Source: Psammoneis japonica
Taxonomy: Eukaryota
DNA length: 64,000 nt
Assembly: GCA_008632985.1 (NCBI GenBank)
Contig: QPGO01000035.1
Coordinates: forward strand, 421,899-485,898
Direction of reading: 5' to 3'
Translations under genes and position numbers: made by a program
Part shown: in pieces, positions 4,601-58,350 of the stretch
Layout of the letters: each line of letters opens with the position of its first letter
Numbering within the stretch: the first letter of the stretch is position 1
The notes under the pieces: generated by a model
Seen by the model: the letters and a program-made list of their open reading frames with translations, nothing else
The model's database searches: none
Told to the model about the DNA's origin: nothing

Positions 4601-4882
4601 AGCTGCCGACTCCAACTTCTCCAGTTTTACCATGCCCTCCTTGTCAACACCCGTGTCCAGATTTGGTCCATGTTGGTCCACCACGTCTTTCAGGGACTTG
4701 GGCAACCAATCAATGCTGTCGGCCACTTTGCTTTTTGCGTTGCTCAGAGCTCTCTTAGTCGGCTTGTCATCTGGCCCAGTGTCAGTCACCGCGACGTTGT
4801 CGACTCGCTCGAATGGATCTCCGTCCCCTTCATTCCATTCAGGCTGTTCCGGTGGGCGGTTTTCAAAGAACTTGTAAGACAT
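1676..4882 (-). mobile_element. Mutator-like (MULE) transposase with SWIM finger; C-terminus continues across two frameshifts
   Basis: ORF 2447..5074 (ATG at 4882) has a MULE DDE-type core (IFLDFMKTKMN...MFADGF...LWDSFHL...ESNHSS) and SWIM CDCTRRLEALSMCPH. It continues in 1866..2453 (CSFCGDKNC knuckle) and 1676..2071. No TIRs were found. Confidence 0.85.
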
Positions 4883-34000: not shown

Positions 34001-37000
34001 GCTCGAGCCGCCATGGAGGTCCTCATGGCGTGGGCACTCTATGTCGAGGACAAGTTTGCGAGGAGAAATCGGATGAAATCATGGCGTTTAGTCCGTACCG
34101 TTTGTTTTAGTGTGCGGTGGTGCCTCCTCCTGTCCGAGAGCATCACACGCTCATTTCCGTGTGGCCACGAGAAACCTTTCAATCTCTCTCTCATGCTACG
34201 ATTCCTCCAAGGCGAGACGGATACCGACAGGACGGCACCATCCTTCAGGATGCTCGCCTCTCTATGCTAAGCATTGAGCTGCTTTCGACCTGTCTTAAGC
34301 AAGCAAACCGTGGGAGTAGCGTTGCTGGAACTCCACCCGTTTCCATTGGATTTGGCAGTTCGCAACACCTTTACGGTCTTTTACAAGACTCGCTAAAGCA
34401 CGCTGCAAAAATCATGGAGGATGGCTCCAACGATGATTCGAACAAGACCGAAAAGGACAAGATGGAACAAACGATTCGACTCTTGCGCATGCTGTGTACA
34501 TGCATTGAGACGCAGCCTCACTTGGCTGGCTCTATTTTATGCGGATCGGAGGGCAAGCCTTTGCCCATTTTGGAACTCGTCTTTAAGAATGTTCGCAAGG
34601 TGGCAGACTTTCTCAAGCAAGGTGGCTTGGAATACACGCGTCAAGTTTGCAAGGACAGCCGCCTTACGAGTCACCTGCAAATCGCTTCCGAGTGTCTCGA
34701 TGTGCTTGCCGCCATTTGGACAGCCGCTCGAGCTCCAAAGGAAGTCCCTTGAGCAACAAGGTCAAAGATTGGGTCCCAATAGTTACTTCTGAAGTCAAAA
34801 AGAGCTCACTCTTTTCTGATTTGGTTTACCTTGTCAAGAACCACTTGACGTTACTACAAGACGAAGACCGCGCCGAGTTTGTTTCGGGAAATTGCTATAT
34901 TCGAGGCGTTTTCTTGAACGTTATTGCACGTTCGCTAGACATTCTTTCCTTGCAGATGGTCGAGCATGACACGGACTTTCTCAGCATGCCGCAACGTCGA
35001 GAAATAACAGACGCTTCGCTGACGGAATCGCTGTCACGAAATCTGCCCTCCACGAAGAGTCCTGCCTACTTGATGAAGACCTGGGGAGATTTGTCTGGCG
35101 TTGCGGCGAACGAGCTTCCTCGACAGGCGGGTATGAAAGGAAAGCAACCAAAAGACTTCCTCTTGTCGTTTCCCACGTCTTGTGCGTTTGATCGGTTCAT
35201 GGAAGAAACTGGACTCCGCGGCAGCGCTTGTGACGTTTCCAGCGCTGCGCGTTTTCTTCACAGACTTTGCAACGCTGACGGTACCGACCAAATGGTGGCT
35301 ACAGATTCGCGGTCTTGGCTTCAAAAGACCGCAAACGTTCATTCTGCCTTCGTGCTACTCCACAGAGAGCTCAAGTTGATTTCCGCTGGAAAGGGTTTGC
35401 TGAAGTATTGTTGCGACCGGAGACAAAACCAGGGTGGACCCCGGCAAGGCAGTACAAGAATCTCTGTCTTTGGCGCAGGAAACTTGCGGCACGCTTCACC
35501 ACAATTTGAGAGTGGTGGAACTCTCCCAGGTGGATATGATGGATGGTTTCCTCTGCTTGGAGACCGGTGTCATGGCACGAGCGCTCACCAGTCTATTGTT
35601 GCAATCTCTGGAGCACTCTGTGAAGGTATCAGACGGTTTGGCTCCTCCAGCCAAACAAACGGTGCAGTTGGCAATCACGGAAATGTTAGGACAGCTACAG
35701 GAGTCATCTGACGAAGTCTTTTCTACTCTTTGTCAGCCGCCATCGTTCAACGACGTTGACATGTTGAAGGTACGGGACATTTTCGTGTTTTTGCTTTCTT
35801 GACGAGCTTGTCATTGCGTCATCTCACTTTCCTGTTTTTGTCTAAATCGACAAACGCAAAGACTTTCTGTTTCCTACAACAAGATCTCCTCGCTTCCGCC
35901 ATCGTGCTGGTCAAGGCATCGGAACCCAACGCCGTCTCTAACAATCGGACGGGGGAAAATCTAGATCGACTCAATAAATGCTCGGTTGACTTTGCCTTTT
36001 CTGCTTGTCGAACCATAAAGTTGATCAAGCCGTATGCAATGGAGGAACACGGAGGTAGCCGCGCTCGACAAGTATTGCGTACTTCCGCGTCGCTTCTTAC
36101 ATTGCTGCTGTCCCGTGGTAAGGACTCTGCCTCTCACGCTGGCCAAAGTAACTATCTTTCCAAGGTTGCGGAATCACTAAAGGAAAACGGAACCATTATG
36201 ACTTTGGTCGAGCAGGCGAATGAGTCGTCGGCGAGGTCAACTTCAAGTGGGCCGAAAACTGCAGATGAAAGTCAAGGCCGCACCGGTTTGGGTCTTCCAT
36301 TTGCTGAACTTGACCGAAAGCGGCAACAACATCGTGACATGAATATCGACACTGTGAAAGCCATCTTTTCTTTCATGTTGGCAGTGGCTGATGCCAGCGA
36401 CGCCTCCGTCGAACTGCTGAAATTGCTTACAGACAGCGGTATCGCACAGTTGCTATTGAATAATCCACTTTTTCGTTTTGCGAGCGAGCAGTGGCATTTG
36501 GGCGAGCAGGCTGATGTTTCGATCGACCGTACAATGGCTGTTGGAGGCGTTCAAGAGAATCGTAATTTACGAGGCTATTTACCAAAAGAAAGCAAATCTG
36601 GGCTGGAACGACGAAGAGGCGCAGTGAAGGACGTTTCGGGACAATTCTTTTCGGGTAAAGACGACCCTTTGCATGAGATTTGGAGGACTGCGCTACGCAT
36701 TCTTCTTGCGGCCGTACGGTCTTCCAGGCACGCAGACACGTCGCGTCATTCAGAATCTGTGAATGCGTATTTTGTCCAGACAGCACTTGACTTTCTCCAA
36801 ACCAACGAGGCCTCACTCCGTTCTTGCTTGCGGCAGTGCGCCTCGGTGCCATTCGGCGATAAATCAGCGCCCGCTTTTCCCCATGCGACAGCCGCAGCAT
36901 CTATGAATTCTCAATCAGTTGTGTTCACTCGGAATGTTCTTCGAGAAGCGCGTGATCTGCTCGCACTGGTTTCGGAGCTTTGCAGCGGCAAAAATCGAAA

Positions 37001-38297
37001 CCAGTTTGAACGCTCTTCAACTCTGCTCTTTGAGGAATTTGTGCAGGCTGCGCTGAAGATGATCGGATCGTTAGGGCAATTCCTCGGTGCAGCTGGTGCC
37101 GCGAGGGAGTTATTCATGGCGCTTACGGACAACGTTGACGAAGGCGATGATGCCGCCAACAGCTACATAAACCAGCTGCTCGAAGGTGGTATCCCAAATG
37201 CACGCCACGAGGCGATTCGAAATGCGCACTATGCTATTCGATGCTGCGCTTTTGTCACGGCGGATGACTACGACGCTTTCGGTATGTCACATAATAAGGC
37301 CGGCGAGGGCACTGCTGATAGTCTCGAACGCACCTGCGAAGTTGCTGTCAATAGCCATTTTGTCCTCCGCATGGAGCACGCGGCTGCGGAATGCCTCTTC
37401 CACGCAGTTTCGGTCGTGTCCGAAACACATACTGCTTCTTCCGCGTTCGTCATGTTCACTCCAGAGGAGTTGACCCGGTTGAACGTCATGTCGCTGGTCA
37501 AGGAGCAATCGATTATCGCGCTGCATAAACCCGGAGACGGGCGTACTACTCGCGAGGCCCAATCGACTCTTCACTGGTCGGCGCCTGCGTCTTATCCAAG
37601 CAGACCAGGCGGCGACTTGCTTTTTGCACGTGTCCTCGGACGTGACACCGTTCGTCGCCTGTGGCGTGTTCAGTACCTGGAGACATCCTCAGTAGCCGAC
37701 GTGAAGGCTGATCTCTTGGCTGGTGTACAAGATACAATTAGGAACTGTCTCTTTGAGTACAAGTTTGCGGAATCTGCGTCTGCGGTTGAGGCTGCCGGTG
37801 GAGTGGACCGCAAGGCATCTCTCGGACACCTCATTTTGGCACTACGATGGTGTTATCAGTTCGCTTCCATCCCCGAAAGTCAGAATAGCGACACTGCTCT
37901 CACCTGTCGCCTTGCCAAACTGGCTTCCTTACTTCTTGGAACAGAAGTAGCACTACACAGGGAGATTCGAACGCGAGAGGTTGTATCCGAAGAAGTGACC
38001 AAACGCATCGGCGGACAACTCGTGGGCTTGTTTCGAAGCAAACGGCGTATGCAGCGAAACGAACGACCACTTTCCGAATTGGGACCGAACGAAACCCCGG
38101 CAGACCAGCTTCCCGCAGGTCGCATGCGGAAATTGCTAGACGGCCCAACGTGGGATACTATCCAGCGTCTGATTCGTCCCGAACTGGAGGCAGCGCAAAA
38201 GCTCCAAGAGAGTACACAGAGACGCAATGAGCAAAGCAACATTGGTGAAGCTAGTCCTTATCGAAGAAGTGGGTTCTTTCGAGGTTTGTCGCTGTAA
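31055..38297 (+). CDS. Very large alpha-helical protein, probably nucleoporin Nup188/Nup205 family; broken by ~10 frameshifts
   Basis: Overlapping helical, Leu-rich ORFs tile 7.2 kb. The N-terminal RHYYRQRTARIQVVAECLR resembles the Nup188/205 N-terminal YYxER pattern. Intron from donor 35770 to ~35883. Confidence 0.55.
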
Positions 38298-38418: not shown

Positions 38419-40086
38419 TCATCTGAGGAAATTGGGCAGCCCCGTCCCGCCATTACTACTTTGTGATGATTCTTCCTCAAACTCGTCGTCATTCTTTTCG
38501 TTCCTGTACACATCATCGTCGGGTGGTGCTTGAAGATGTGTCGACCATTCCGTCACTCGTCGGCTCCGTTCCACATCGAGCAAGTGTCGGGTTTGTTGTA
38601 CCAAATCCCGATTTCGTCGCAACGAATCGACATCGTCCTGATCCGGTACACGAATGAGTGGATTTCCAAAATCGTCCGTCAGCATATTATTGGTATGGGT
38701 GGGTCGTGTTGGCGCTGCTTGTTGTTGCGCTTGTTGTTTTTGTAATTCTTCTGCCTCTTTTTGTTTCTGCTCAATATAGGCAGCCGGCAGTGGTACGAGA
38801 GGATTGCCAAAATCGTCCGTGAGAATGCCGGGTGGTAAATCCGTGTACTTTTTGGAGCTCGGCAATGTCTCTTTTTTTCTTGTTGGATAGAGTGGATTTC
38901 CAAAGCTGTCGGTTGGGTGAATGGGTGGATTCGTTAATTGCGAATTGTAGTCCAAAGATGTAACTTCATGCAGTGCATCGTTGGGAGGCAGAGGATTCCC
39001 CAAATCGTCCGTCATTTCGTTGGCAGCAGGAGTAGTTGAGTCTGTTGGTGCCGTCACCCCATTGCGTTGTTCAGGTACAGTAGCGACTCCCGGCAGAGGA
39101 TTACCAAAATCATCCGTCATTACATTGGCAACAGGCGGAGTCGAGTCTGATGGCGCAGTTACCCCATTGCGTTGCTGAGGTGCAGCGGCAACCCCTGGAA
39201 GAGGATTCCCAAAATCATCCGTCACTACTTGGGAATCAGGTGGCGTCGAGTCGTCTGTTGGTGCTTTCACCCCATTACGTTGCTCAGGCACAGCCGCAGC
39301 AACCAGAGGATTACCAAACTCGTCAGTGGCAATTTCAGAATGACTGGGAAACGCCTCTACAGCATTGTCTATGATAGCATCAGGCAATTTTTCAGGCACA
39401 GCAGCCCCCGCAATAACCGTTGCGCTGGCTCCGTTTTTCTTGTAGACAGCTTTGCTTTCAATCAAGTCATTATGTTGTTGTTTTGTCCCCTCAACGGCTT
39501 GTTGCGCAAGCGTCGGTCGGTTGTGTCCACCACCACATCGCACAATTCCTTCAATGCTCCCCCCCGGTGTAATTGCAAGCTCTTCGGAACAGACATCCCC
39601 AATAATCTCTCCCTCGGCCCCCACAACGAGACGTTCACATTCAATATTACCGTGTACTTTTCCATAGGCCTCCACCGTCTTTACCCCGTGAATATTGGCG
39701 TGCAGTACACCCTCGGTTCCTATTCGAATCAACGTGTCAGCATCATCAGCATCAGCATTAGAAGTACACACAAGCATGTTGACTTGTACCAATCCCGACA
39801 CCAAGAGCGAGTGTGGAAATTTTAAACTCTCCGTGGCCAAGACGGAACCAGCTCCAATGGCAACGGAAAATTGATTCTTGTCATCTCGACGAGAATCTCT
39901 TCGAACCGCCAACGCTGGTCGAAAACGACGGCTTGATTGTGAAGAAACTACTCTGCCGTGTTGAAAACACACGAATCGAGTGACGGAAAACGGTTGTACC
40001 GCCGGCCATGAACATACTACGAGCCCAAATACAATCCAAACACAATTGTATTGTGGTGGTAGGCACCGCGTCGTGTCCTTTTGCAT
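38419..40086 (-). CDS. Bactofilin (polymer-forming beta-helix) domain protein with N-terminal targeting peptide and seven TD(D/E/S)(F/L)GNPL motifs
   Basis: SVAIGAGSVL...LLVSGLVQVNM...IRIGTEGVLHANI...VEAYGKVHGNIECERLVVGAEGEIIGDVCSEELAITPGGSIEG follows the bactofilin G/hydrophobic pattern (~39535-39870). A hydrophobic N-terminus is followed by an Arg/Ser-rich segment. Confidence 0.85.
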   Translation of the reverse strand: MQKDTTRCLPPQYNCVWIVFGLVVCSWPAVQPFSVTRFVCFQHGRVVSSQSSRRFRPALAVRRDSRRDDKNQFSVAIGAGSVLATESLKFPHSLLVSGLVQVNMLVCTSNADADDADTLIRIGTEGVLHANIHGVKTVEAYGKVHGNIECERLVVGAEGEIIGDVCSEELAITPGGSIEGIVRCGGGHNRPTLAQQAVEGTKQQHNDLIESKAVYKKNGASATVIAGAAVPEKLPDAIIDNAVEAFPSHSEIATDEFGNPLVAAAVPEQRNGVKAPTDDSTPPDSQVVTDDFGNPLPGVAAAPQQRNGVTAPSDSTPPVANVMTDDFGNPLPGVATVPEQRNGVTAPTDSTTPAANEMTDDLGNPLPPNDALHEVTSLDYNSQLTNPPIHPTDSFGNPLYPTRKKETLPSSKKYTDLPPGILTDDFGNPLVPLPAAYIEQKQKEAEELQKQQAQQQAAPTRPTHTNNMLTDDFGNPLIRVPDQDDVDSLRRNRDLVQQTRHLLDVERSRRVTEWSTHLQAPPDDDVYRNEKNDDEFEEESSQSSNGGTGLPNFLR

Positions 40087-40498
40087 CGTTTCAGCATCAT
40101 GCTGTTATTTTGCGGCGTCATTGTCGACATGCAAGATTTTGACAGGCGCCAAGAATCATCGCTTCCATACGTAGAAATCTACGGCATTTTTGTACTGAAC
40201 GGAACAGATGCTAATACTGCCACGTGATGGGTGAATCATGTACTAACATTATGAAAACAATAGGTTCTCTATAATTATTATTGATTGTATTTCCCGCGCC
40301 ATGTCCGTTGCACGGCAATGAATTTTATCATGATTGTAGAATCAATAAATGACGCGCGTTTGTTTGCGCGATTTTTTCGAAACGCCCAAAAAATGCCGCC
40401 GACGTTGAGATTCGGCACTTTCTCATTCTCATCATCACTCTTTGTGGTTTGAACGAAACTCTTCTCTTTCAATTGAAAAAGCACAACAACACATAATA

Positions 40499-42967: not shown

Positions 42968-44452
42968 CTCTCACATTTTGGCGTTTCGCGATTCGCGAAC
43001 CCCACCATCAGAACCCAGATAATTGCGACGACACCTTCTGCTTTTTGAAATCTGTTGGGCAATCCAATGCGATGGGTTAGAAATGATTCAGTTTTTAAAA
43101 TAAAACGGTGAAAATACAGTGACTCCTGCACTTGGTCTCTCTACCATTAGTTTATTGTCCACTTGTCTTGTTTCTTCTTCTACCTGTCTGCAACAATCAG
43201 TTGATAAAAGGTCCTCTCTAGTTTCGTCATATCATTCCATGACAAAATGGATGTTATGATTCGACGTAATGTGTTGGTTGTTCATTCCGAACATCGTCAA
43301 CGCACACCGGCAACAACGCAAAGCCGAGCAGTCAGGAAAGAAGTGAATGAGAAGAAGCCGAAATTCTTGGTTCGTTTAAACGAATCAAGTAGTAGGATTC
43401 GGTTTCCGCTATTGTGTAAGAGCGATCCTCCTAAACTTCATCCATCAGAGGCTTTGACAGGCGACGTACCGGGAGCTTATACTTGGTGTTGTGCCATGTG
43501 GTGTCACGGCATGGTATCTTATTCAGAGGGTCCGACTTCCTTCTAGTTGTACGCATAGCGAAAACTCCAAGACCCAAAACTCACCTCATAGCTCAAAGAA
43601 TAAATCTATCTACACAATTTCAATTTGATGTAATATGAAGCCTAATAGTATACTTTAATTTATGAAATAACAGCGTTGTCTCGTTTCTTTCTGTCTCGTT
43701 TTCTTTTCCAATAGACAACACACGCACAATAATCACACGCAAATCTCGCCTCCAATACACAAGTCATCCAATAACTTGGAGGCGGCGCGGATCTTCCTTG
43801 GGTTCTCTCCCTCTCTCTAGGGATCGTCTAGTGTGCCGGCAAAATAAATGAGATCTGTGTTAGGGGCCGGTGGACAGGGAGGAGCAGGCGCTAGTCCAGC
43901 CTCTTGAGCTGGTACGGGTACGCCTCCACTGGATCCAGTGGATGATGAGCTGCTTGAACCAGTGGATCCAGCGGATGATGAGCTGCTTGATCCCGATCCT
44001 GAACCAGAAGAATAGTAGGGAAGCTGGCGGCCGCGCATTCCATGTCTCTGAGCATTTGCATCGTTACTGAGAGCAACTCCCAGGGACGCAAACAACAAAC
44101 CGACTTGAAGGAACTTCATTGCGTGATTGACTTCTTGTGCAAAAAGTGTTTTATTATGAGAAGCCCTACAAGAGGCGAAGATGGAAGTACTTCAGTCGTT
44201 GTTGATGGCTTTCAAAGAATCATCGAAAGCGGGATGCTGACACCCAGAACACAATCGAATCTTCTTTTTGAATTTTCAAGTTTCAAATTGTTTGATACTG
44301 AAGCAAAAGGATTCCAATAAACGGAATCTTGCTTCACCACGATTTTAAGAATTGAGACAATTCCTATTGTCGAAAGACTGGAGAAGATACGAACCTTGTG
44401 AGACTTCTTTTGATGGATTCCGGTCGTGGCAAAATGTTCTGCTCTTCTTGCA
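42968..44452. repeat. Segmental duplication, copy A (direct repeat of ~61119-63100)
   Basis: Colinear shared blocks, e.g. ttttgaaatctgttgggcaatccaa, catggtatcttattc, gtctcgttttcttttccaatagac, acacaatcgaatcttctttttga and gtcgtggcaaaatgttctgctctt. Confidence 0.93.
43817..44119 (-). CDS. Small secreted Ser/Gly-rich protein with RxL (RQL) motif, 100 aa
   Basis: Signal peptide MKFLQVGLLFASLGVALS, RHGMRGRQL, and a paralog at 61992-62765. Confidence 0.8.
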   Translation of the reverse strand: MKFLQVGLLFASLGVALSNDANAQRHGMRGRQLPYYSSGSGSGSSSSSSAGSTGSSSSSSTGSSGGVPVPAQEAGLAPAPPCPPAPNTDLIYFAGTLDDP

Positions 44453-44699
44453 CGTAGATGTATGTATGTACAGTATTGTCTTTGAACAACCTAAATTCGT
44501 ATGACGCTATACGGATACAATAATTAGTACATAGGACCCTATGTTCTACATAGCTAATGCTGTAACAGAAATGTCAATCGCACTGTAGAATTCTATGTAC
44601 CGCAGTACAAGATCATTCACATTTTGCATTCCAAAACGACGCCCACAAAACCTTGCCAAAAGAGCAAGAGTGGAGACTCGAGAACTTTCCCTTCATGCG

Positions 44700-47050
44700 A
44701 GTGAGGAAGGACAAGCAAAGAGATTGAGCGAGAAGACGTGCTGCAATTGCACCTTGGGGTCAACTTGCCAAACATGTGGTTGCTCATGGGTGCCAAAAAC
44801 ATGGCAGACCACGCACCTCCTGTGTTTGCTTCCACAAACGCAAGAACAAGAAAGGACTCTCAACTTGCAGCACAAGCAACAGGCATTTGGACAAGAAGCA
44901 ATGGAAACTTCAAACCTTCCCAGAATCCAGTCCAATTCAGCCGAAAGTTTGTCAACTCATCAACGACACCCCTGATGTTGCCGACAAACAAACAAAAACC
45001 AGGCCAACACCGAAGCCAACAAAGAAAACATTGCACCCAACAATCAAGAGATGGACACTGATGAGGGCAGAACCAATGAGGAAGTTGACACTGCCACAAG
45101 GAACAGTGTGCAGTTGGAGGACAGACAGGGCTTGAGAAGGGGCTGTCGTTCCGTCAATTGACTGCACCATGACACACCCAATGACTTCAATTCAAAAGCA
45201 AAACAGACCACACACAAGAAGTGTGGCAAGACATGTCATCTCAGCTGTGGCACTGAACTGGATGGTGGAATGTTGGATGACAAGACAGGGCAAGAGCATT
45301 GGCGCCGGCCAGTGTCCCACCCATCGCAATGATGCGACGTGCCAAATGGCTCGATTGGCAAACGATTCATTGCAACATTGGCACAGCTGCTGCACGGAGT
45401 CATGATGTGGAAGTGGAACTTGGAAAGATTCACAGCACATCAAATGGTTGTTTTGTGGTGGGACCACAATGCAAAAGGAGTGAAAGATGTCAGAACTTTG
45501 CTGAGCACGCGCACGGACGATTGGGACGCAGGCAAGCACAAAATGCTGATCCAGTCAGCAGAGCGGCTGCTCACAAAGCTGACCTGAAGACCACTCAGAA
45601 GGAGGAGATGCCTGAACAGTGTGCTGAGACATTCAACAGAATGGTGCTCCAAGGGAACCCAAGAGGAGCAGTTGGGCACATCTGTGAATGCGAGAAAGAG
45701 GTGGAATTCTCTCACTGGATGACATCGACGAAAAAACCAAGAACGACTCAGTGTTTGAGGTGCTTTAGAAAAAGCATCCAAATCAGAGGATCCCAAACAA
45801 TGAAGACCATTTTCACAAATTCAGTGAGCTGCCCAAGCTCCAGGACATCCTTGCCACCAAAATGGCGCCATCAAGACCATCGCACGCAGACTGTCCGGGG
45901 GCGCAGGACTTGGTGGATCTGATGCCAATGCTGTGTCAGAATGGCTTCTCCATCACAGAAAAGCCAGTGGATTGCTCAGAGAAGCATCACGCATGTTTGC
46001 AAACTGGCCAGAAAACAAGCAACCCCATGGGCTGCATGTCATGCAATCATGGCAAAGCAACTTGTCACGCTAGACAAAAATCTGGGCATGCATCCGGTCG
46101 GCATGGGGGAAGCATGGCAACAAGCCACTGCCAAAGCTGTTCTCCCAGTTGCCAGAGCAGAAGCCAAGAAAGCTTGTGGGACAGACCAGCTGTGTGCTGG
46201 GCTGGAAGCATGCATTGAAGGTGCCATCCACACAACGAGCATGCTCTGGGAGCAACGCAAATTCGGATGCATGTGACTGTTGGTTGGCAGAAAAAGCTGA
46301 GTCATGGACCTTGGTCATCCAGGGACTTGCCAAGATCACAATTCACCACCCTCAGACTGCCTGTGCCGGTCTGCAGAAGTCTCCACAACACCAGTGGCAA
46401 CATGTCCAGCATGCAGCAAAGGACTGTGGCAAATGTTTGCCGATGCAGAGCACGAGACACAGTGCAATTTTCTGTCGGTGCCGATCAGTGAGACCCCAAC
46501 CAACGATGACCCAAGACCAGCCCTGTCTGCCCTCCCAATCAAATTTTCGGGACTGTCCATCCCTCATCCAACAGAGTCTGCAGCTCACAACTGTGAAGCA
46601 AGTGCTCTCACGTGCTCCCACATGATCAACTCACTCTGCGGCCGCTCCCAGTTCTCCTCCGCAGTCCACAAGGACACCATGCGCAAAGTGAAACAAGAAG
46701 CAGCCAATCAAAAAGTTAAAGCACATGGGAGACCCTCAAAATGATCCTCAGGACCCTGTCCTGCCTTCAGGCCAGAGCTGTCAAGTGCAGCACCAAGACT
46801 GGAGTGTGGCTGTCAGCATGCCCTTCGACACTGAATGGCACAGAACTCTCATGCCAACAGTTCCGTGACACGCTCTTCTTGTGGCATGGCGGCACTCCGC
46901 CAGACCTCTTGGAGCACTGCAATGGATGTGGATGCAAGTTCTCCATCAACCACACCCTCTGGTGCAAGAAGGGTGGCCTGGTCATCTCATGACATGATGA
47001 AGTGTGTGACAACCTGGGTGACCTGATTGGCAAGGCTTGCAAATCATCAT
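44700..47050 (+). mobile_element. CRE-like non-LTR retrotransposon relic (RT + zinc finger), internally deleted
   Basis: LDKNLGMHPVGMGEAWQQ...ACGTDQLCAGLEACIEGAIH (cf. RPIGIGE..RR...QLCAGLEAG.EGAIH), HPQTACAGLQKS, LPIKFSGLSIP and GTELSCQQFRD...CNGCGCKFSINHTLWCKKGG. Confidence 0.8.
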
Positions 47051-47229
47051 GTGACAACCAGGTGACCCAATTGGCAAGGCTTGCAAACCTTCCCATGCAC
47101 GTGACAAACCATGCATGCCATGGTGGCATCACATTCCTTGGCAAAAGTTGGGTCATTTGCCTTGAGTTCCAAAGTGAATTTACATGTCCAGCACAGCCGT
47201 TGGAGCATCCAGAGTGAGCGGGAAGCAGT

Positions 47230-50220
47230 GTGAGAAACCCAGAAAAAAGGAAATTGTTGAAGAGAAGATGCTTCAGCTGCCAACGTGGTGGATCTGGCAA
47301 CACTTTGAGAATGATCAAGGTGTGTGTCTGGCAAGGCCCCAGAAGACATGGCATGCATGACTTTTGCTCTGGTGAGAGTCCAACGTTGCAGATGGCATCT
47401 GCAGCGGTGCCGGCAGCATCAGCCACAGATTGCCAGAGTGAGGCAAACAAGTGGGCCAGAGAGGAAAGGCAGCTGGAGCATGATTGCAAGATCAAGTTGC
47501 ATGACTGCAATGAGAAAAGTCAAGAAGCTCAACAAAGAGAACAAGAGTGCTGCATTTGCAGCAATCCTGGACAATTGCTGCTTGGGGCCAATGAGCAAAG
47601 ATTGCAGGCTGATCTCAGTTGCCCGAGCATCAGGGATGACCCAATTGAGCTGCTGAAATTGATCCAGTCACTTGCGCTCCACTCCTTGAGAGGTCAACAC
47701 CCATTCCATTTGCTTGTCAAGTCCCTGAAGCTCACACTGGATGTGAGACAACAAGAGATGAGTGTCACTGAATGACTGCCTGTCAAGATTTAAGAATCAA
47801 AGAGACATTGCAAGGAAAATCTCAGTGGAAAGAAGCCAGATTGATTCATGATCATGAATGCCAAGGAGTGCAAGAATTGCACCAACACAGCAGATCAGAA
47901 AGCACTGAAGGACACTGCATTCAAGACATGGACCACATGTTTGTTTGTGGAGAACAGCAATGACCACACCGCTGCAAGAGCCTCAAGAAGAGCCTTGTGA
48001 GAGACCACAGCCTGGGGAGGGACTCTCATCCCAAGATCCTTGACAAGGCAATGGATGTGCTGCTGAACCATCCCAAAGACAACCTTTCAAACAAGAGGCA
48101 GAGCAAGAAGAGTGATGAACATCCAAACAACAAGAAAGATGACAAGAGCAATGACAAGTCCAAGAATCTGCAAGACCAGAGTCATGCACAGAGTGGCAAG
48201 ACAACATGCCATGGTTGTGTTGAGCCAAACCACAAGTCCCCAAACTGCAGGCACAACAATGAGATTCTGCAGAAGTGCTGGTGCAAGAACACCAGTGAGA
48301 AATTGCATGCCAGGGAACACAGTCACACACAGAGAGACAAAGACAATTTGTCTGTGATCAGCGACAATGCCAGCATTGATGCCTGCAACTGGCATGGGTT
48401 CCAAGCAGATGAACAGGCCAAAGATGGGGCAGAGAGAAGTTTGAGCCAAGGACATTTGCATCAAGTCAAATGAGATCATCGTCAATGACAGTTCTGCCCT
48501 TGGCACAGCAGCAAGTCAGAAACGGGTGCACAATGTGCAACCAGCAAGGATCAAGATTGGTCTGTCCACCAACACTGGAGTGGACACTTCAGACAGAGAC
48601 TGCACTGTGCCAGGATGGGGTGACATGAAGAAGCTTGGATCACAAAACATGACAGAAAACATCCTGAGTCAAAAGGATGTGAAGAGCAAGCACTCATCCA
48701 TTGGACTAAAAGACTGGCAGACAAGTTGTGGTGTGTTCAAAGTTGACGACATTGGGCTGCATGCATTTGCACCAAGCCAGTGATTCCATGACCATGAAAA
48801 AAAACTGCAAGAAGATGAGTTGCATGTGAGCATGCTGTCAAAGGAATGAAAAGAAGGTCACAAAGAAGACCAACAAGAAGCACAGGAGCGCACACTGGGA
48901 GAGTGCATCAGGAGCCATTGTTCCAACTGTGAAACAGAACATGAAAGGCTGCACCAAATGAGCAACAGCAAGTGCTGAGGAAGCACTCAAACCACACTGC
49001 AAAGCCAAAATGCCCAGTGTGAGGGATTTCAAGCCACTTTTATGATCCAATTGGGTGAAAAACCCATCCATCATTCCTGAAAACGTGAACAGAATGGTGG
49101 CCATTTGGGGTCCACCAGCAGATGCACTGTGAAAGGCAAGTCAAGACCAAGCAAGCACACCACTCCTGTGAGAGGAACAACACTGTTGCAACTCCACCTG
49201 AAATTTACAAAAAGAAGAAGAAGAGAGAAGGTGTGACTCTCTGCACTGATGTCACAGAAGCATGCAGTGTCAAGATGCTGCACATGGTTAACAAGACAAT
49301 CAAGCATTGATGAGGTGTGAGACTGAAGTCCAAGAGAAACATGCACTTGTGTTTGCAAAGCCTTGGACATGATTCTCCAACAGCACAGTGTGGCCCTGTT
49401 CAAAGTTGACTTTGTAGAGTGTGATCCAGAGTTCAAGGACACACTGGCAGAAGTCACGGATGGCATGAATCTGGAACTTGTTGCATCTGCAAATGCCAAC
49501 GATCATGTCCCCAAAGTTGAGTGAAGCATCCAGACCATCAAGGAGCAAACCAGAGCCACTGCACATGACATGCCATGCAAGACAACACCCATGTTGATGT
49601 GCGAGCAAGCCGTGATCAAGAGCGCTGTCATGTGGAACATGCACTGGCAACAGGAAGGGATTTCCAACACTTGCGGTCCACACACCATCATGCGTGAAGA
49701 GTCTGAACAAGACAAAGAACCCCAGGAGAATGCAACAAGATGGGGAGGTGAACGATTGGAGGAAGATGGCAAGTGTGTTGTGCTGAGCAGGATTGCAAAA
49801 TGCAGAGCATCTTTCAACATGAAGGCAGACACCAGAAAAGCAGCAAGGGAGCAACACACAAGCTCAAGTGCTGCCATCATCTGTGCACCAATGTGAGCCC
49901 CAATGCAAAGGACAATGTTGAGTGTGAAGTGGAGACAGCAATGGTGCTTGCGTGCTTCATGTGAGAGATTGATGGCCAACTCTGAAAGCAACATTTGCTC
50001 CACAAAGGCCTCAAAGCATTTGGCCAGAAGGAGCATGATGCCTCAGAGAAAGAAATCAAACATTTGCACAACTGAGTGTGCTTTGCACCATGCACCAGTG
50101 TCAGTCAAGGATGTGACTCTGACTGAAAGGAGGGCCAAGGCCATGGCAGCCTTGATGTTTCCAACCAAGAAACGAGATGGTTGTGCAAAAAGGCAAATGG
50201 TCTGCTGTTGACGCCCATGA
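47230..50220 (+). mobile_element. Copia (CoDi-like) LTR retrotransposon relic: gag, integrase, start of RT
   Basis: DDPIELLKLI, DHSLGRDSHPKILDKAMDVL, knuckle CHGCVEPNHKSPNC, integrase DPEF...DHVPKVE*SIQTIKEQTRA and RT LMFPTKKRDG. Confidence 0.8.
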
Positions 50221-52289
50221 AGGATTCCATGAAATGAGTGCATTTGTGGGGGCAATGATGCCAGCCTGGAGAAGGCAAAGACCAGATTGTGATGAAGATT
50301 GAAAAAGTGCCAGTGGACATGCCAGTGAGCCTTGATCCCAACCTGTGTGGACCTCATGTGGTCCCAGAAAAAGGCAACAAGAGAGTCCTTCATGTCCAAC
50401 AAAAAAAGTCAAGAGATTGCACAAGAGAGTGAGGACAAAGGATCCAAACTGGTGTTCCCAGCATGAGGAATGGAAAGACAAGATCTGTGGAGAGGATCCC
50501 CAGGGTTGCAGAGGTGCCACAAATTGAAAGAACTGTCAGAAACCATGACAGAAATGAAGACAAGCTGTGAAGCAGCAGTTGAATGTCTCACCACTGCTGC
50601 ACCAATGTTCTCTGTCCTGGACAACAAAGAGATTGCATCTCCAACTGTGGAGCATGCCACTGATGCACACAAGACCAAAGAATTGTGGCAGGCACCAGGA
50701 GCTGATTCCCAGACAAGACAGATTAACAAACAATGTTTGGCACCCAAAGAACATGTCTGAGTGACATTGCCACATTGTGTCACAAGTTGAATGTTGTCTT
50801 TCCTGCCTTTGGCACAAGGAGCAAGAGTGGGGTTTGTGGACCCCTCACAAATCTCAAGGATCTTGACCCTGAGAACACACAGGAGTAATTTGGACTCATG
50901 CTGGATGCCAAAAAAGCGCTGCACATGCACGGCATTCCTGAATTTGACAGAAACAGTTGACAGTTGGGTCATGGACTGCCTTGGAGGTGCAGAAGATGAG
51001 AAGAATGAGAAAGAGAAATGTTGTCACACCAATGTGGAGCACTCTGTGGAGAGTGTGCATGGGGCCATGTGTGCATTCAATGATTTGATTGATTGCAGGG
51101 ACAGTGGCAAGTGCACACATTTGTGCATTTGCAAGTTGCAGGACAGTGGTGACAGTCCTGAAATGAGCGGCAATGGCGCCAAGAGTCCTGAGCAGACTGG
51201 TGAGCTGCAAGACTGCAATGAGTCCAATGAACACAGGCCACATGAGCAGCAGAACATTGATGCAAGCATCAGGAGTGTGTTCAAGCATGTGGAACAAGCA
51301 AGAAACATGAGAATTCCTGGAAAGGAAACTGTTTCAGAAAAGATGCTTTGGCTGCTGGTGTGGTGGATCTTGCAACACTTTGAGAACAAATCTGCATTCA
51401 TTGCCAATCTCACCAACCTTCTTCTGTTGCAATCTTTGGAGTGAATCATCTGGTTTGTGCAAATTGCATTGTGGTGTCAGCAGGCACCTGTCATGCCACA
51501 AGATCAAAGTTTGTTGAGGACTTCAAGGTAAACCACAGCTGCCACAGAAACAGAACCAGTGTGACAAGCATCACATGAAGCCTCAGTGGATTCCCTTTTG
51601 GTGGCATTGACTTGTTGGTTCAAGAACAGCACCCAATTTTGGGTTGGCATCTCAGTGAGTGAGGGCTGGGTTGAAGACAGCAGCATGTTTGGCATCATCA
51701 TGCTTGCAAGTTCTGTGGCTGTGAAATTTCAAAAGACAACCAGCTGAGAAGTCTTCCTTGCAACCACCATTGGCATTGTGGAGCATGCACTCATCAACCA
51801 AGGGAGACCAGAGCTGAGGATGACAACAGTGAGTGCATGTGCACACAGTGACACAGCCTTCTTTGGGTTGCACAGAAACACACAAGCTGCCAAACCCATG
51901 AAAAGTGGCCCCTTTGCCAAGATCTGGATTGACCTTGAGGGGATGTGGGTTGTTGGTTGGTGGTGCAAATGGTTGGCAGCTGTGTGCACATCAAGTTGTG
52001 CACCACAACATTCATTGGCACATTTGAGCTGAAAGGCATTGACCTGAAAAGCTTCATGTCAGCATCAAAGGCAACAGACAGAGAGGTGCAGCATGGCACA
52101 TTTGTTGAGATGCACACAGAAATGAGGGTGGCAGTGCCAAAGCCAAAGCTGACAATTTCTTGCACGTTGCACTTTGAACACATGTGATTTCACAGACACA
52201 ATGACACACACAAAAAAGAGGTGACACATTTTGAGAGTGTTGCTCCACTGTCTGTGTGGGAATGACCCACTCACTGAGACTCTCTCAAA

Positions 52290-55200
52290 CCAGGAGAATC
52301 ATGACTCTGCTGAAAAGAGGAGCACTGTTCACACAGTGAATGGTGCAATGGTGAGTTGTTGCCACTGCCTGAAACATGTGCTGGGTGGCAGCAGCTGGTG
52401 ATTGTCCAGGCAGCCCTGGCAAGGAGAAAGCAGCACAGCAATGGAACAGGCAGTGGTGGATGTCAGCAGACCAGTTGGAGTCCTTGCACTCCACAAGTTT
52501 CACAGAGGATTTGGCCTGTGGTGGTGGGGCAATGCAGTCATGAGGAATAGTCAGGAGTGGGAAGGAGGTGGCATGAATGGGAGGAGTGGATGATTCAGGC
52601 ATGTGAGGCCAAAGCATTGGTGTTCATTGAGAGGCTGAAGAATCTGTTTCACAACTCCATGGAAATCCTCATCACCTGGGTTGGAGCCAAGCTGACTCAG
52701 CTCAGTGATGGAGAAACCCCCACTGAGATCCACACATGCAGCCACCATTGCCTGCATCAGCTTGCCAACAGCCTTGCGGCATGAGAAGCCATGCTGTGCT
52801 TTGAGGGCATGAGATTTGTTGGTCATCAAGAGGGAGGGAGCTTCATTGAGGTTGTGGTGCAGGTTGCATCATCCAGCATGGGCAATTTGGCAATGCCACA
52901 TTGTCCCATGGGTGGGAAGGTGATGAAGGGACAGTCAGCCACAACCTGTTTGATGCAGGATGTGCTGTGGAGACAAGCACAATCTCCAGTGTTTGTTCAA
53001 CATCACATGCAAGGAACAGTTTGAGGAGGCCCTGGCAGTTTTTGATCTTGCTGCCTTTTCACATGACTTGTGGCGGGTCTCATCAGAGTTGGAAGTGATG
53101 GCAAAGTCATCAACTTGACACAGAAATGGGTTTTTCTTGCAACTCACCTTTCCACTGCAGACAAAAGGTTCATGTGTTGTTGGGGTGAGAAAGACTGCAT
53201 TGTGAAGGATGCCATCAATGTGGACATTTCCACAAATGGGGGGACTTGGGGTGGCCCAGGAGCAATTGGAGGACTGCTGGGAGAACAAAGCATTCTGGCA
53301 TGGGTGGACAGCAAAGATGTTCAGTCCACCAAATTTGAAATGCTTTGTCAACTCACACACAGAATGTGTGCCGGGAAGGGAAGCTGCCATGAATTCATTG
53401 CTGATGTCAATGCCACACACTTCTCAATTCTTAAGAGTGCCCCACCAGAGTGGAGAAGAGGCAAGTGCTTGGTTGCTCCACTGAAGCTGCGCACATTTGA
53501 TCAAGGGTCTGCATGCAGCCAGATCAAGGACTGCCATCACATGTGCCATGGGCTTTCTTGGTGTGGTCAAGATTGTTCTTGACAAGGCAGGGCCACACCC
53601 AGCTAAGCACTGCTGCACCCTGGGGAGGTGGCATTGGTTCACCAAACATGCCTCAGGTGCTGTGCATGTCCCAGTTGCTCAAATTTGCTGGGTTGCCAAT
53701 TGGTCCAGTCCTCTTGGATGAGCAGTTTCCATTGAATGAGTTTTTGCATGGCCATGGTGGGAAGCGCAGGGTCCTTGATGGTCTCCAGTTGATGGCAAAT
53801 GTGGTTGATCTGGTTGAGAAAGAGCTGCAGGCAGTGGACCGCCGGAATCCAGTGTTGGGGAAGAGCAGTCATGAGCAAATTGGAGTGCGGTGGCATCATT
53901 GTCTGAACAAATGGATTGCACAACCTTGCCCAAAGATGGAAGATCAGCTGCAGGGTGAGAACACACAGCAGCAAACAAGACAGGCACATTGCAGCTTGGA
54001 TCTCCAGTGGGGCACAGGACTGGCACGAGAGCTCAAATGACAATGCTGCAGGTGCAGTCAGCCATGGTTGGAGTCATGGCTCAGCTCCAGTCCACAGAAT
54101 GGTTTGGTGGTGCCCCATGTGGGTGACAAGGGGGTGTCAAAAGAGCAATCAAATGGGTTGCAAGACACAGCAATGGTGGCAACAGATTCCAAGGCAATCA
54201 GATCTTTTGGCGTGAGGGATGCCGCTGCAGCAGTGTGTGACTCCTCATCAATGAATGTGCTTTTTCCTGGTGGCAGTTGGCTGTGCAGACAATCTTTTGG
54301 TGTCTGTGACTGGGGTGACAGATGGGGGGGGGGGCTGACTTGCTCAATGCCCAGATTGAAGAGCAGCTGAGGTCCTGGAGGTCTGATGGGTTGTGCAAAG
54401 TGCGCCTCATCACAGGTGGCATGGTGGTTGGTCTTTTCTTGGCCAATGGTGGTGGTGTCCCCATGTCAAGTGTTCTGTTTGTTGGTGGCCACACAGTCAA
54501 TGAAGATGCCATTGAATGTGTGGCAATCCAATTTCACAGCTGGTCCATCAGGTCATCTGGCATTTGCTTGAGATCCAGAAGCCTGAAGTTGGGGCAGATC
54601 TGGGACATCACCCACCCATGCTTGGTTTGGGGTCAGGTTGATTGAAGAATGCCAAAGGTGATTCTTGAGATAGATGGCATGAACCAAAGCATCAGAGCAG
54701 CACGCAGCTGGAAGGCCAGATGAGTGAAAAAGGGCCCAAACCACAACTCCAAAAGTGTTGTTGAGGATTTTGACATGGCCATTTTGCCAAGGGCTGTCTG
54801 AGCCTGTGGTCTTCATGACATGGTCATGTTTCAAACACATCTTGCAGAAATCCTCCAAACACACAAGTTTGCCACTCTGGTCTGTGCAAACACAACACAA
54901 GCCAGACTTGTGACTGTGGTGAGAGAGGAACACATCCAGCAATTTTGTCGTCGGGGGCTCCTTGCTGGGAGTGAGAAACACCCACATCCACTGATGAGTC
55001 TCGGCATCCATTGGTGACAAGAGGGAATTGCAGCCATCACAGGATTGGACAACCCAATCCACTTGATCTTTCTCATGTCCTGCTTGTCAGCACAAGGTTG
55101 CATGTCAGGCCCTGATGCATGCATGAACTGCAATCCATGTGAAAATGGTCAGTGGGTGTGAGATGGGTGTCATCCTAGATTGCCCCCCCCCCATGGACAA

Positions 55201-55450
55201 TCAATGGTGTTGGGCATCATCACACACATTGCAGGAGCAATGTGGTGTGGCACCAGCTGCAGCAGCTGGCACACTGGTGACATGGCATTAGAGGTGTTGC
55301 AATTGGTGCATGCCAGGGTGTCCCAGGTTGTTGTGATGTCCCAGTTTGCTGCTTGCAACTCAGATCAAAGAGTGAAGAATCAAGTGGAGCTGGTCATCAT
55401 TGGGCTCAGCAGTCTTGGGAGGTGGCTGGACATTGCAGTCATCTGGCTCT
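52290..55450 (-). mobile_element. Second Copia relic (integrase-RT-RNase H); probable gag remnant at ~59500-60900
   Basis: WVFLTPSKEPP...CTDQSGKL...GSDSPWQNG...ALVHAIYLKNHLWHS (integrase), TTHEP...FLCQVDDFAI (RT) and DSNWSAD (RNase H). Confidence 0.82.
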
Positions 55451-55800
55451 GGTTCAGAAAGATGTGCCAGGGTTGCCAGGGTGGGAAAAGTGTGTCCTTT
55501 CTCAACAGAGGTGGGAGCATGCATGGTCAGCTTTTGGAGAGCCCCATCAAGTTTGGTGGCAGATGAGGCAAGTGGGATGTTGGGACGAATGCAAGGAACA
55601 AACCACCCACCATTTGCATGAACCACAGGGAAGGTGCACATCAGAGAGTGGTCTTTGTTGGCAAATGTGCAATCAGCCTGTGTCCCACACCCATGCAGTG
55701 TGGCACATGAAATTGGCTGCATCTCTCCACAGATGAGCAACCAATGTGGTTGGGGGAGAATGGCACTTTGCCCAATCCTGTGGTGGACATGATTGTGAGT

Positions 55801-56064
55801 GGCCTGTTCCAGCTCCAGGTGCTCTGCTTTTCATCACGCGAGAGGCCGATTTTCTGTGCAGTTCAGCGCAATTAACACCTTCAATTTTGATCGTTTCGAA
55901 AATCGAAAGGTGAGTGTACACCCGAAAATACATGCAAAGTGTACACTCACCCTTCGATTTGGCAAAAACGGATTTGGAAAAAGTTAATTGCGCCAAATGC
56001 ACAAATTTTCCAAAAAAATGATGGGAATCGAACCCGCGCGGAGCACCTGGAGCTGGAACAGGCC
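55801..56064. mobile_element. Fold-back MITE, 264 bp, 27-bp TIRs, 4-bp TSD GAGT
   Basis: ggcctgttccagctccaggtgctctgc pairs with gcggagcacctggagctggaacaggcc (26/27). Inner inverted pairs gcgcaattaac/gttaattgcgc and aaatcgaaaggtgagtgtacac/gtgtacactcacccttcgattt. gagt lies at 55797-55800 and 56065-56068. Confidence 0.88.
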
Positions 56065-57329
56065 GAGTGTGTTTCATTTTTCCAGGATGAATGGCATTGC
56101 ATTTCACAAAATCCATGAGCTTGGCATGTTGAGCCAAATGAGAGCAGTGATGGTGACTGTGTCCACATGAGATGCATGCATCACATGTGAGGTCCTTTCA
56201 TTGTTGAAAAATGACCAGCTGGCAATCCAACTGTTGTTGGGTCTTGCAACTGAAATGGCTGCAAACCGGGTTGGACAGAGGAGGGAGCTTGGGATTAATT
56301 TGAGCAACAAGGGACACAAGTTGGAAATCACGAGGAAGCGTGGCATGCCACTGAAATGCAAAATTTGTGTCACAAATTAATTCACAAAGGCAAATGGCTT
56401 AAATTTTTCCCCAATGAAAGCACGTGCAAGGTCTCTGAATGCTTTGTTTTTGCTTCAGACAAGCAAATGTAACAGTTTTGACAAGAACCGCAGGTCTGAA
56501 AGTGACACAAAACAACAAAACAACTGGATTGTTGTCAACACAAAGAGCTGCATGATGTTTTGTTTGTGAGGAAAGGTGGTGCAATTGTGAAACAAAAAGG
56601 ACATTTTTGTTGAAATCTTGCAATGCATTGGCATGAGTTGCTGTCATGAGGAGAAGGCAATTTCCTTTGAAAATGACAATTTCTTGTCATTTCTTGTGAA
56701 TCACATCTTTTCTCAATCAAAGCAAAAGAATGCTTGCACCTTGATTGCACTGGAAGATGTGGCAAAGATGATCTTGGAGGGTGACAAGGTTGTGTGTCAT
56801 GACTTGCCTCTTGCAGCAATGGTGCAGAATTCATTTTCACTGAGTTCATTCAGCCAGTGTTTCAGAAGCATGGCAACTGGTCATGTGTCACCAGAAGTTG
56901 TTGCTTCCAACAGTTTGAGGGACTTGTTCCATTTGGCATGCATTGGGGGATCAGCAGTTGTGTTCAAAACCCAGCACAGAAAAATGTGTGGCTCTTTTTC
57001 TGCTCCTTGCAAAGATGATGTTCTTGAAGCACATCATCTTGGAGCAGTTTGGAACAGATTTCCATTGAGCACTTCCACCAGTGAGAGCTGCCAATCTTCA
57101 CGGAATTGAAAAAGTCAGGCAGAGTGTTCAAGAAGATGGCAACATGCCATTGGACAACTCAAGGGATGGCAAAGCAGGGGCTGGTGTCTCTCACAGAAAA
57201 CTTTTCAGAGGAAGATGCAGACTTACCAGCAGACAGACCTCTGGATGCATCCACAGAAGGCAGTGGATGAGCAAGGGCAGGGCCAGCAAGACAACCTGCA
57301 ATGTTTTTGAGAATCATTGGAATCTTTGT

Positions 57330-58350
57330 GGCTGCTGATGCGTCAAGCAGCCAGGGGGGCGGGGGGCAAGGAACCTGGTGATGCATCAGCCATCACCGGT
57401 GAGTGGGTGGAGGAGGATGAATCAAGGGAAGATGCAACCACGGGCAGTGGTGCTGCCAGCTGGGCAAGCTTGGAGGCACTGCACCACATGTTGGTGAGCT
57501 CTTCATTGAGGCCATTGCTTGACTGTGCAAGGTGTGGCATCAGACACCTTCTTCTAAGACTCTGCAGCTTGGGCAACTGCCTCATTGATGGAAGTGGATG
57601 CTTTGCTGGATGGATGTGTTTTGTTGTCTCCATGAACAAAGAGGAGGGACAGCCAAAAATGCAAACTTTCAAAGATGAACATCATCACATTTGTCATTCT
57701 TGGAGAGAAGGACATCCACAACATTCTTTTGCTTTGCTGCAAAGACTTTGAAAGCAATGGCATCAATGGCTGTGTTGTTTTGTTGAGCTCAGAGGAAACC
57801 ACAGATTTGAGGATAATCCAGTGTGGAGTGAGAATTTTTCACACTTGTTTTGAATGATTCAAGGGCTGACTGCAGATGATGGGTGTCAACAAGTGCACAA
57901 CTGCATCTGGGCCTGCTGGTGGTGACACTGGGCCAAAGGAAAGCAATGTTCCCAGCAGCACAACCCATGCATTGTTGCCACCAATCTTGGCAGGAATGCA
58001 ATCAATGGCAGCATTTTCAAGAAGGTGCTGGAAGGAACACACTCAAAATTTCATGCACACCCACCTCCATCACATGCCATTGTGTGGCTCATGCAAGCAA
58101 CCTCAAGTGGAAAAAGCAGGGCACTTGGGTGCAAGCATGTGGATTTTCAAAATGAGCCATCCAAGGACATTTTGTTTGCAGCCTGTCCAGATGCTCATGT
58201 CAAGTGAGCTGGGAATGAATCAAGTCATTTGGACCCGCTTCTCAAGCTTTGCCATGGCCACCCTCTGACAAGGAACCTCAAGGAGGACATGGAGAAAAAG
58301 GGAGGACCAGCTGTGCTGTTGGCTTTTTTGAGGGAGTGTTGAGCTCCTGA
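57330..58350 (+). mobile_element. PIF1-type helicase relic, probably Helitron-derived
   Basis: Degenerate motifs in order across frames: PGG.GGK-like, ATTGSGAA, LIDGS, VELRGNHRFEDNPVW, RNAINGSIF and DPLLKLCHGHPL. Confidence 0.55.

Follow-up and report, generated by a model that had tools for sequence, protein, structure and literature searches.

The window analyzed here is a 64,000-nucleotide stretch of the Psammoneis japonica assembly GCA_008632985.1 (contig QPGO01000035.1, positions 421,899 to 485,898 of the forward strand). The subject is a bactofilin-type gene on the minus strand at positions 38419..40086 of this window. Its product combines a bactofilin domain with a leader resembling diatom plastid presequences and a long, mostly disordered tail, the end of which is reminiscent of the FtsZ C-terminus. 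The window is diatom nuclear DNA. The best named matches of an LDH/MDH protein encoded in it are from diatoms, namely Attheya with 72% identity, followed by Cylindrotheca, Nitzschia, Epithemia and a Bacillariaceae metagenome-assembled genome.

According to the list of open reading frames (ORFs), the translation and an upstream in-frame stop, the gene is a complete single-exon coding sequence, with one unbroken frame of 555 codons from the ATG to a TGA stop. An in-frame TAA at 40107-40105 lies 7 codons upstream of the ATG and the second in-frame Met, M104, is located within the folded domain. Hence, M1 is the only sensible start. A short upstream ORF (40017-40100, minus strand, 27 codons) is out of frame and overlaps the main ATG. 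Its start codons are two ATGs that precede the main ATG by 14 and 11 nt, and two further ATGs of the same frame are found at 40130 and 40121. If the transcript begins that far upstream, the short ORF might influence translation initiation. All features of the gene described below are located on the minus strand.

Bactofilin domain and homologous proteins

Bactofilins are well studied in bacteria. In the protein encoded in the window, the bactofilin beta-helix domain comprises residues 71–188 (39523..39876). The Pfam Bactofilin model PF04519 matches residues 89–181 with 36.1 bits (E 7.7e-9), above its cut-off of 27.9 bits. A model computed with AlphaFold2 from a 91-sequence alignment has beta-strands over residues 75–184. 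Its predicted local distance difference test (pLDDT) values are 91–98 for residues 71–180, with a dip to 79 at residues 111–120, and 77 for residues 181–190; most of the chain outside the beta-helix is below 50. A Foldseek search with this model against the PDB returned bactofilins at ranks 1–3, 6rib_A (TM-score TMt 0.89, root-mean-square deviation 1.8 Å), 2n3d (TMt 0.71) and 6ria (TMt 0.72), each with a probability of 1.00. The corresponding E-values are 6e-3 to 2e-2 and none reaches E <= 0.001, presumably because the query is long and mostly disordered. A profile built from the window protein and three relatives detected BacA (2.3e-5) and TtBac (7e-4) among the PDB sequences. Thus, the protein is a bona fide eukaryotic (diatom) bactofilin with a beta-helix. 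The original prediction, made from the DNA sequence, had placed a complete beta-helix at approximately residues 73–185, and the Pfam match, the confident structural model and its nearest structures, TtBac and BacA, all agree with this assignment.

The window protein shares with BacA from Caulobacter crescentus (PDB 2N3D) and TtBac from Thermus thermophilus (PDB 6RIA/6RIB) the Pfam family PF04519, a predicted right-handed beta-helix of the same size and disordered tails flanking the domain. In contrast to both, it is eukaryotic and nuclear-encoded with an apparent leader of the signal plus transit type, and its C-terminal tail of about 365 residues is far longer and bears GNPL modules and the FtsZ-like end.

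A word-based search with the window protein found three relatives. The profile of these four sequences was then compared with 1.84 billion representative proteins and retrieved 4631 at E <= 1e-3, 79 at E <= 1e-10 and 9 at E <= 1e-30. The top of this list is a distinct family of about 45 sequences, many of them fragments that represent N- or C-terminal halves. Among the 28 homologues having the N-terminal half, 24 pass the Pfam Bactofilin cut-off; of the other four, three score lower and one is too strongly truncated. Many fragments break at one position of the beta-helix, after GD[IV]xxxx[ML]. At a metagenome locus (L003, 3-782 and 740-2242, plus strand) both halves are located on a single contig in the correct order, and consequently the breakpoint is an intron. 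The gene in the window has no intron at this conserved position. The L003 locus unites in one gene a leader (QTASA↓FSISR), the beta-helix, the intron, the GNPL module and an ending D-I-L-P-H-F-L-K. Altogether, the metagenome scan gave 249 pattern matches and 5 loci confirmed by tblastn, four of which belong to the family according to the profile. The fifth, L005, was judged to be spurious as a family member. A scan of prokaryote genomes with [VT]D[DN]FGNPL[IY] resulted in 59 pattern matches, none of which is a relative, and a word search with the tail alone (residues 440–555) returned nothing at E <= 0.01.

In a FastTree phylogeny of 96 sequences of this short domain most family members group together, P0025, P0031 and P0037 stand apart, and no clear bacterial sister to the family is apparent. 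These three proteins have kept one GNPL module and carry a basic RFLGRFR/RFLPRFK tail in place of the usual ending. They share with a metagenome locus (L001:3629-4780, plus strand) an arrangement of a signal-like leader, the bactofilin domain, one GNPL-helix module and an amphipathic-looking basic end, and this end might anchor directly in a membrane. Four further proteins of approximately 330–355 residues (P0036, P0039, P0040 and P0041) have the Pfam Bactofilin domain in their C-terminal half (43–49 bits) and share a conserved N-terminal region with ...SFHQANIWFNE near its beginning. They are devoid of the hydrophobic leader, the GNPL module and the FtsZ-like end and adjoin the main family in the domain tree. 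They may represent a cytosolic paralogue family.

A look for sequencing runs brought up DNA runs from one study and no RNA run. This result, the out-of-frame ATGs 11 and 14 nt ahead of the start and the two ATGs of their frame further upstream would fit a gene-model artefact or a non-functional gene, i.e. one that is untranscribed, that uses another start or that was acquired horizontally and is decaying. We give this explanation hardly any credence. The 555-codon frame is intact and holds all modules of the family in their usual succession, with the invariant residues of the last tail module and the P-x-F-L-R end described below preserved, and homologues occur across many divergent sequences, several of them with the conserved intron.

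Oomycetes have no plastid. Bactofilin domains were reported in stramenopiles and ascomycetes, and the Phytophthora protein PiBac polymerizes (Deng et al. 2019, bioRxiv 10.1101/617639). Since polymerization was demonstrated for PiBac, eukaryotic bactofilins can be functional polymers. PiBac (Phytophthora infestans PITG_07992) resembles the window protein in that a bactofilin domain is encoded in a stramenopile nuclear genome. In contrast, the accessible text of Deng et al. describes no organelle targeting, GNPL module or FtsZ-like tail, and the words "diatom" and "plastid" do not occur in it. Their brief report is the only one on eukaryotic bactofilins that we found, and as far as its accessible text goes it gives no function, compartment or partners. 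A full-text literature search, judged by titles and the openings of abstracts, yielded no account of the family described here; the supplement of Deng et al. may include diatom sequences. Consequently, the apparently new aspects are a bactofilin with putative organelle targeting, a conserved tail module and an end that seems to be borrowed from FtsZ.

N-terminal leader

Residues 1–32 (39991..40086) form a signal-peptide-like leader. Its Kyte-Doolittle hydropathy has a 9-residue maximum of 2.96 starting at residue 16 (core, residues 16–24), and the core is followed by WPAVQP↓FSV, where the arrow marks the possible cleavage site. The stretch of residues 33–70 (39877..39990), with Phe33 as its first residue, is transit-peptide-like. 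It contains 10 Lys and Arg versus 3 Asp and Glu, its isoelectric point (pI) is 11.9 and Ser and Thr account for 18%. This is the Arg/Ser-rich stretch that the original prediction had noticed behind the hydrophobic signal. The ASAFind-matrix transit scores are 4.55 at F33 and 4.58 at F38 (criterion > 2), with Phe itself supplying most of the F33 score. According to the ASAFind rules a signal peptide is followed by F, W, Y or L at position +1, and import into diatom plastids is said to depend crucially on Phe at +1 (PMC4329603).

Cleavage sites were scored with the ASAFind matrix (Table S2, PMC4329603) over the 24 positions behind the most hydrophobic 9-residue window, which differs from the ASAFind procedure itself. 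A hydrophobic core (mean >= 2.0) is present in 18 of the 29 N-termini of the family; the other 11 look N-terminally truncated. Ten of these 18 homologues have a cleavage score of at least 6.0, with A or S at -1 and F at +1, versus 1.95 expected from shuffled sequences. Examples are LSA↓F, VNA↓F, SLA↓F, SHA↓F, AAA↓F and VYS↓F, and several further members have G↓F. The nearest relative of the window protein, P0021, has an "AVEP...F" arrangement that resembles that of the window protein. A mitochondrial presequence was rejected as an explanation, since what predominates in the family is a hydrophobic signal core with [A/S]↓F. A transmembrane anchor was likewise rejected, because the unbroken hydrophobic run of the window protein comprises only about 11–13 residues (residues 15–27).

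The window protein itself is less regular, and its cleavage region is the part of the leader that weighs against import into the plastid. Its sites are non-canonical, with scores of 5.02 for VQP↓F (P32↓F33) and 5.29 for R37↓F38, and 153 of 500 shuffled sequences score equally. Pro at -1 of AVQP-FSV corresponds neither to a canonical signal-peptidase site nor to an ASAFAP site. By the -3/-1 rule S26↓W27 is another possible cleavage site. Such a region, indistinguishable from shuffled sequences, together with the 8 of the 18 hydrophobic-core homologues that stay below the canonical score, would be compatible with a plain signal for the endoplasmic reticulum (ER) or the periplastidial compartment. 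The bactofilin would then reside in the endomembrane lumen, in the periplastidial space or outside the cell, and the finding would reduce to an unusual secreted or luminal eukaryotic bactofilin. We regard this as rather improbable. [A/S]↓F occurs in 10 of the 18 homologues whereas about 2 are expected, the window protein has an aromatic residue (W27 or F33) behind its core, and the next 38 residues are strongly basic, poor in acidic residues and resemble a transit peptide. Furthermore, there is no obvious use for an FtsZ-like tail outside the stroma. A plastid address is therefore well supported for the family and moderately supported for the window protein taken alone, as far as presequence features can tell. 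The plastid-targeting leader proposed in the original prediction thus holds in that a bipartite leader of the plastid type is conserved in the family, but not in that AVQP-FSV would be a canonical example of its cleavage site.

GNPL motifs and conserved module of the tail

The disordered acidic tail contains seven T-D-(D/E/S)-(F/L)-G-N-P-L motifs within residues 254–477 (38656..39327), as seen from the motif positions, the DNA pattern and the pLDDT values. The D(D/E/S)(F/L)GNPL cores start at D255, 290, 325, 360, 393, 424 and 471 and are spaced by 35, 35, 35, 33, 31 and 47 residues; position 3 is F in six copies and L in one. At the DNA level the FGNPL pattern occurs 6 times in the 64-kb window, in all cases within the bactofilin ORF, versus 0.13 expected; none of 100 shuffled sequences reaches 6. 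For most of the tail the pLDDT stays under 50, rising slightly at the motifs, and the whole tail is acidic (pI 4.5). The number of motifs, seven, and their location in a disordered tail correspond to the original prediction, and the P(E/Q)QRNGV.AP element listed there three times is readable three times in the translation.

A 105-bp (35-residue) tandem repeat (38987..39298) is the source of the central motif copies. Tandem Repeats Finder reports a period of 105, 2.9 copies, 79% matches and a score of 346. With strict counting in 30 tail-bearing family sequences, one motif is found in 16, two in 8 and none in 5, and seven are found only in the window protein. The five sequences without a strict motif have an FGHPL variant. 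Even the closest tail, that of P0027 with 56% identity, has a single motif and a different linker. Judged by these comparisons, the array of seven arose in this lineage by tandem expansion of a 105-bp unit.

Motif 7 is part of a longer element that the original prediction had overlooked. Residues 470–518 (38533..38679) form, according to the alignment and the AlphaFold2 model, a family-conserved module that consists of motif 7 (TDDFGNPLIR) and a long Arg-rich helix (D.DSLRRNRDLV..TR.LLD). This module recurs in every tail-bearing homologue. D471, F473, G474, N475, P476, L477, R479, R490, L495, R500 and D504 are invariant in 4 full-length proteins, and the consensus of the family is (V)D(D/S/N/E)FGNPL(I/Y/L/F)RGA..(D/E)..(V/I/L).(S/G)(L/F/Y)R..R(E/D)L...TR.(L/I)(L/I/M)D. 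An optional DDFG motif precedes it. In the predicted structure a tight turn with a beta-bridge across FGNP is followed by a helix of residues 483–518, with pLDDT values of 89–94 in the full model and 92–98 in a model of the tail only. Another predicted helix follows motif 6 (residues 435–456, 38719..38784; pLDDT 82–89 in the full and 93 in the tail-only model). The tail-only model has a predicted template modeling score of 0.35 and shows two isolated helices rather than a compact fold. The module region has no match in Pfam, and NCBIfam gave none for 3 family proteins.

EPYC1 of Chlamydomonas and PYCO1 of Phaeodactylum are pyrenoid linkers. In these proteins short motifs are repeated at regular spacing in a disordered region, as in the tail of the window protein with its seven motifs 31–47 residues apart. 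The original prediction had described a multivalent sticker-and-spacer scaffold of the pyrenoid-linker type. On this reading the seven GNPL stickers would condense a client such as Rubisco. We hold it to be very unlikely. Multivalency is not conserved, as the other 29 family tails carry 0–2 motifs, the array is a tandem repeat and the tail is acidic. In addition, the conserved copy appears to be located in a structured turn and helix module and not in a bare sticker. In contrast to EPYC1 and PYCO1, the window protein also has a folded domain of a polymerizing type, and its repeat number varies within the family. To our knowledge, the GNPL motif is unlike the published Rubisco-binding motifs of EPYC1 or PYCO1. 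Since the seven-fold array is apparently a lineage-specific expansion, a pyrenoid-linker design is not a conserved property of these proteins. In this species, the expansion may nonetheless increase valency.

FtsZ-like C-terminal peptide and putative role

After approximately 360 mostly disordered residues the window protein ends in GLPNFLR. The terminal peptide L-P-N-F-L-R-COOH (residues 550–555, 38422..38439), which was not recognized in the original prediction, was identified from the translation, the family tails and a profile, and it is preceded by an acidic run (DDD...DDEFEEE, residues 523–539, 38470..38520). This arrangement is shared by the family. An acidic run followed by hydrophobic-P-x-F-L-[R/Q/K] terminates 23 of the 31 tail-bearing sequences. 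Of these 23 tails, 22 fit [IVLM]-P-x-F-L and 16 end exactly with F-L-R-COOH, and acidic residues exceed basic ones between positions -25 and -8 in 18. The metagenome gene at L003 has a short basic extension behind its D-I-L-P-H-F-L-K.

The peptide closely resembles FtsZ's C-terminal peptide (DIPAFLR in E. coli, DIPDFLR in cyanobacteria), without being assigned here as a strict instance of it. Translation of the annotated E. coli ftsZ gene gives the end DYLDIPAFLRKQAD, and the cyanobacterial FtsZ C-terminus is LDIPDFLRKRTPPRN (PMC7714070), in which LDIPDFLRKR is a further match to the family tail. The constant and variable parts of the FtsZ tail were defined previously (PMC5125937). A core motif D/E-I/V-P-x-F/Y-L is present in cyanobacterial FtsZ, plant FtsZ2 and red-lineage FtsZA and binds ARC6 (PMC4641359). 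From 16 family tails a profile of 14 columns was built, and DYLDIPAFLR of E. coli FtsZ aligns to it end to end at 12.8 bits. With shuffled versions of a 40-residue piece of E. coli FtsZ the best of 2000 scores is 7.3 bits, and none of the 2000 reaches 12.8. None of 221 non-family proteins is found among the twelve best-scoring rows of this profile. Likewise, among the best 150 matches listed, none of the non-family bactofilins, which are mostly bacterial-looking, has this ending. The PDB matches that phmmer returned for one 26-residue family tail had E of about 9 and were all irrelevant.

FtsZ and this family have in common the hydrophobic-P-x-F-L-R/K sequence at the extreme C-terminus, the disordered linker in front of it and a bacterial-type cytoskeletal polymer as its carrier. 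They differ in that the carrier in the family is a bactofilin rather than a tubulin-like GTPase. Moreover, in the family the residue before the hydrophobic position is often not acidic (Gly in the window protein), Leu or Met frequently replaces Ile or Val, and the chain usually stops at Arg. In FtsZ, the peptide binds partners such as ARC6, ZipN, SepF, FtsA and ZipA.

Tentatively, and with a confidence that falls slightly short of even, we propose that this nuclear diatom gene encodes a plastid-imported bactofilin that docks on the receptor of FtsZA and acts in plastid division or shape. The bipartite presequence, composed of an ER signal peptide, an aromatic residue and a basic, acid-poor, Ser-containing transit peptide, would direct the protein to the stroma. 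There the beta-helix would polymerize without nucleotide into filaments or sheets, as suggested by its fold and in the manner of BacA, TtBac and PiBac. The flexible tail would project from the polymer, and its terminal peptide could dock on a stromal or inner-envelope receptor of the diatom FtsZA core motif. As a result, the bactofilin polymer may be recruited to the plastid division ring or envelope, compete there or stabilize it. The GNPL module would serve as a second interaction element, which in this species was amplified from the usual 1–2 copies to 7 with a presumed gain in valency. The original prediction had named plastid shape, plastid division or pyrenoid organization as possible roles. 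Because of the FtsZ-like end, the conserved module and the non-conserved array, division or shape is favored and pyrenoid organization is disfavored.

Several observations on the tail weigh against docking on an FtsZA receptor, in addition to the irregular cleavage region described above. The tail of the window protein, G-L-P-N-F-L-R, departs from the strict FtsZ core consensus by having Gly in place of D/E and Leu in place of I/V, and the strict motif D/E-I/V-P-x-F/Y-L is found in 5 of the 23 family tails only. The ending is absent from 8 of the 31 tail-bearing sequences, including P0003 and P0026, which share a different end, and P0025, P0031 and P0037 with their basic RFLGRFR/RFLPRFK. In most family tails Arg is the last residue, but the FtsZ tails compared continue (KQAD; KRTPPRN). 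Finally, a resemblance over 6–7 residues can be convergent, or coincidental in function.

Alternatively, a plastid-imported bactofilin scaffold might organize the plastid interior independently of FtsZ, with a terminal peptide that only looks FtsZ-like. The departure from the strict consensus would fit this. The tail could then bind, for example, a thylakoid or the girdle lamella, the nucleoid or an envelope lipid, or it could cap the ends of its own polymer. The domain and the targeting evidence would be the same for such a scaffold, and it would agree with the lack, in most tails, of the variable extension that follows the FtsZ motif. Because P0025, P0031 and P0037 keep the GNPL module but replace the ending, the terminal end may be an exchangeable anchoring device. 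Nevertheless, we consider an FtsZ-independent scaffold unlikely, albeit not markedly so, since the family conserves 5 of the 6 positions that are important in FtsZ (hydrophobic, P, F, L, R). The peptide also has the same placement as in FtsZ, at the very C-terminus after a disordered acidic linker of a bacterial-type polymer, and this polymer is predicted for the compartment of FtsZ.

If docking on the FtsZA receptor is correct, it would be a rare case in which one cytoskeletal polymer carries the adaptor peptide of another. The family may also bear on how FtsZ rings are tethered and positioned in red-lineage plastids. For Thalassiosira and Phaeodactylum, a BLAST survey reports FtsZ and DRP5B, as well as MinD in Thalassiosira, and it lists no ARC6, MinC or MinE for them (PMC4641359, Table 1). 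A more far-reaching and more doubtful idea is that a second cytoskeleton of bacterial type exists in the plastids of diatoms and probably in other complex plastids of the red lineage, a bactofilin polymer whose acquired FtsZ docking peptide occupies the socket of the Z-ring. It might form part of the missing tethering and regulatory layer of division, with the GNPL modules recruiting further division or envelope factors. With this family, the participation of a second polymer in plastid division or shaping becomes a testable question, and its terminal peptide of 10–15 residues could serve as bait for the receptor to which the FtsZA core motif binds.

On one side of the bactofilin gene lies a convergent 752-residue ORF, whose end is 121 bp from the bactofilin stop codon, and on the other, 412 bp upstream, a divergent HAD-hydrolase gene. 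The 752-residue ORF (36039-38297, plus strand) and an 811-residue ORF (2447-4882, minus strand) have no Pfam match at E <= 0.001. Besides LDH/MDH, other genes in the window encode a ubiquitin/PUB protein, a glutamate-receptor-type channel, a cytochrome-b5-fused desaturase and EF-Ts. Between approximately 51.4 and 59.4 kb no ATG-started ORF of at least 180 residues is listed. The strand composition is strongly anomalous at 44001-60000, with an AT skew of up to 0.30 at 48001-50000 and a GC skew of 0.12–0.15 across 50–60 kb.

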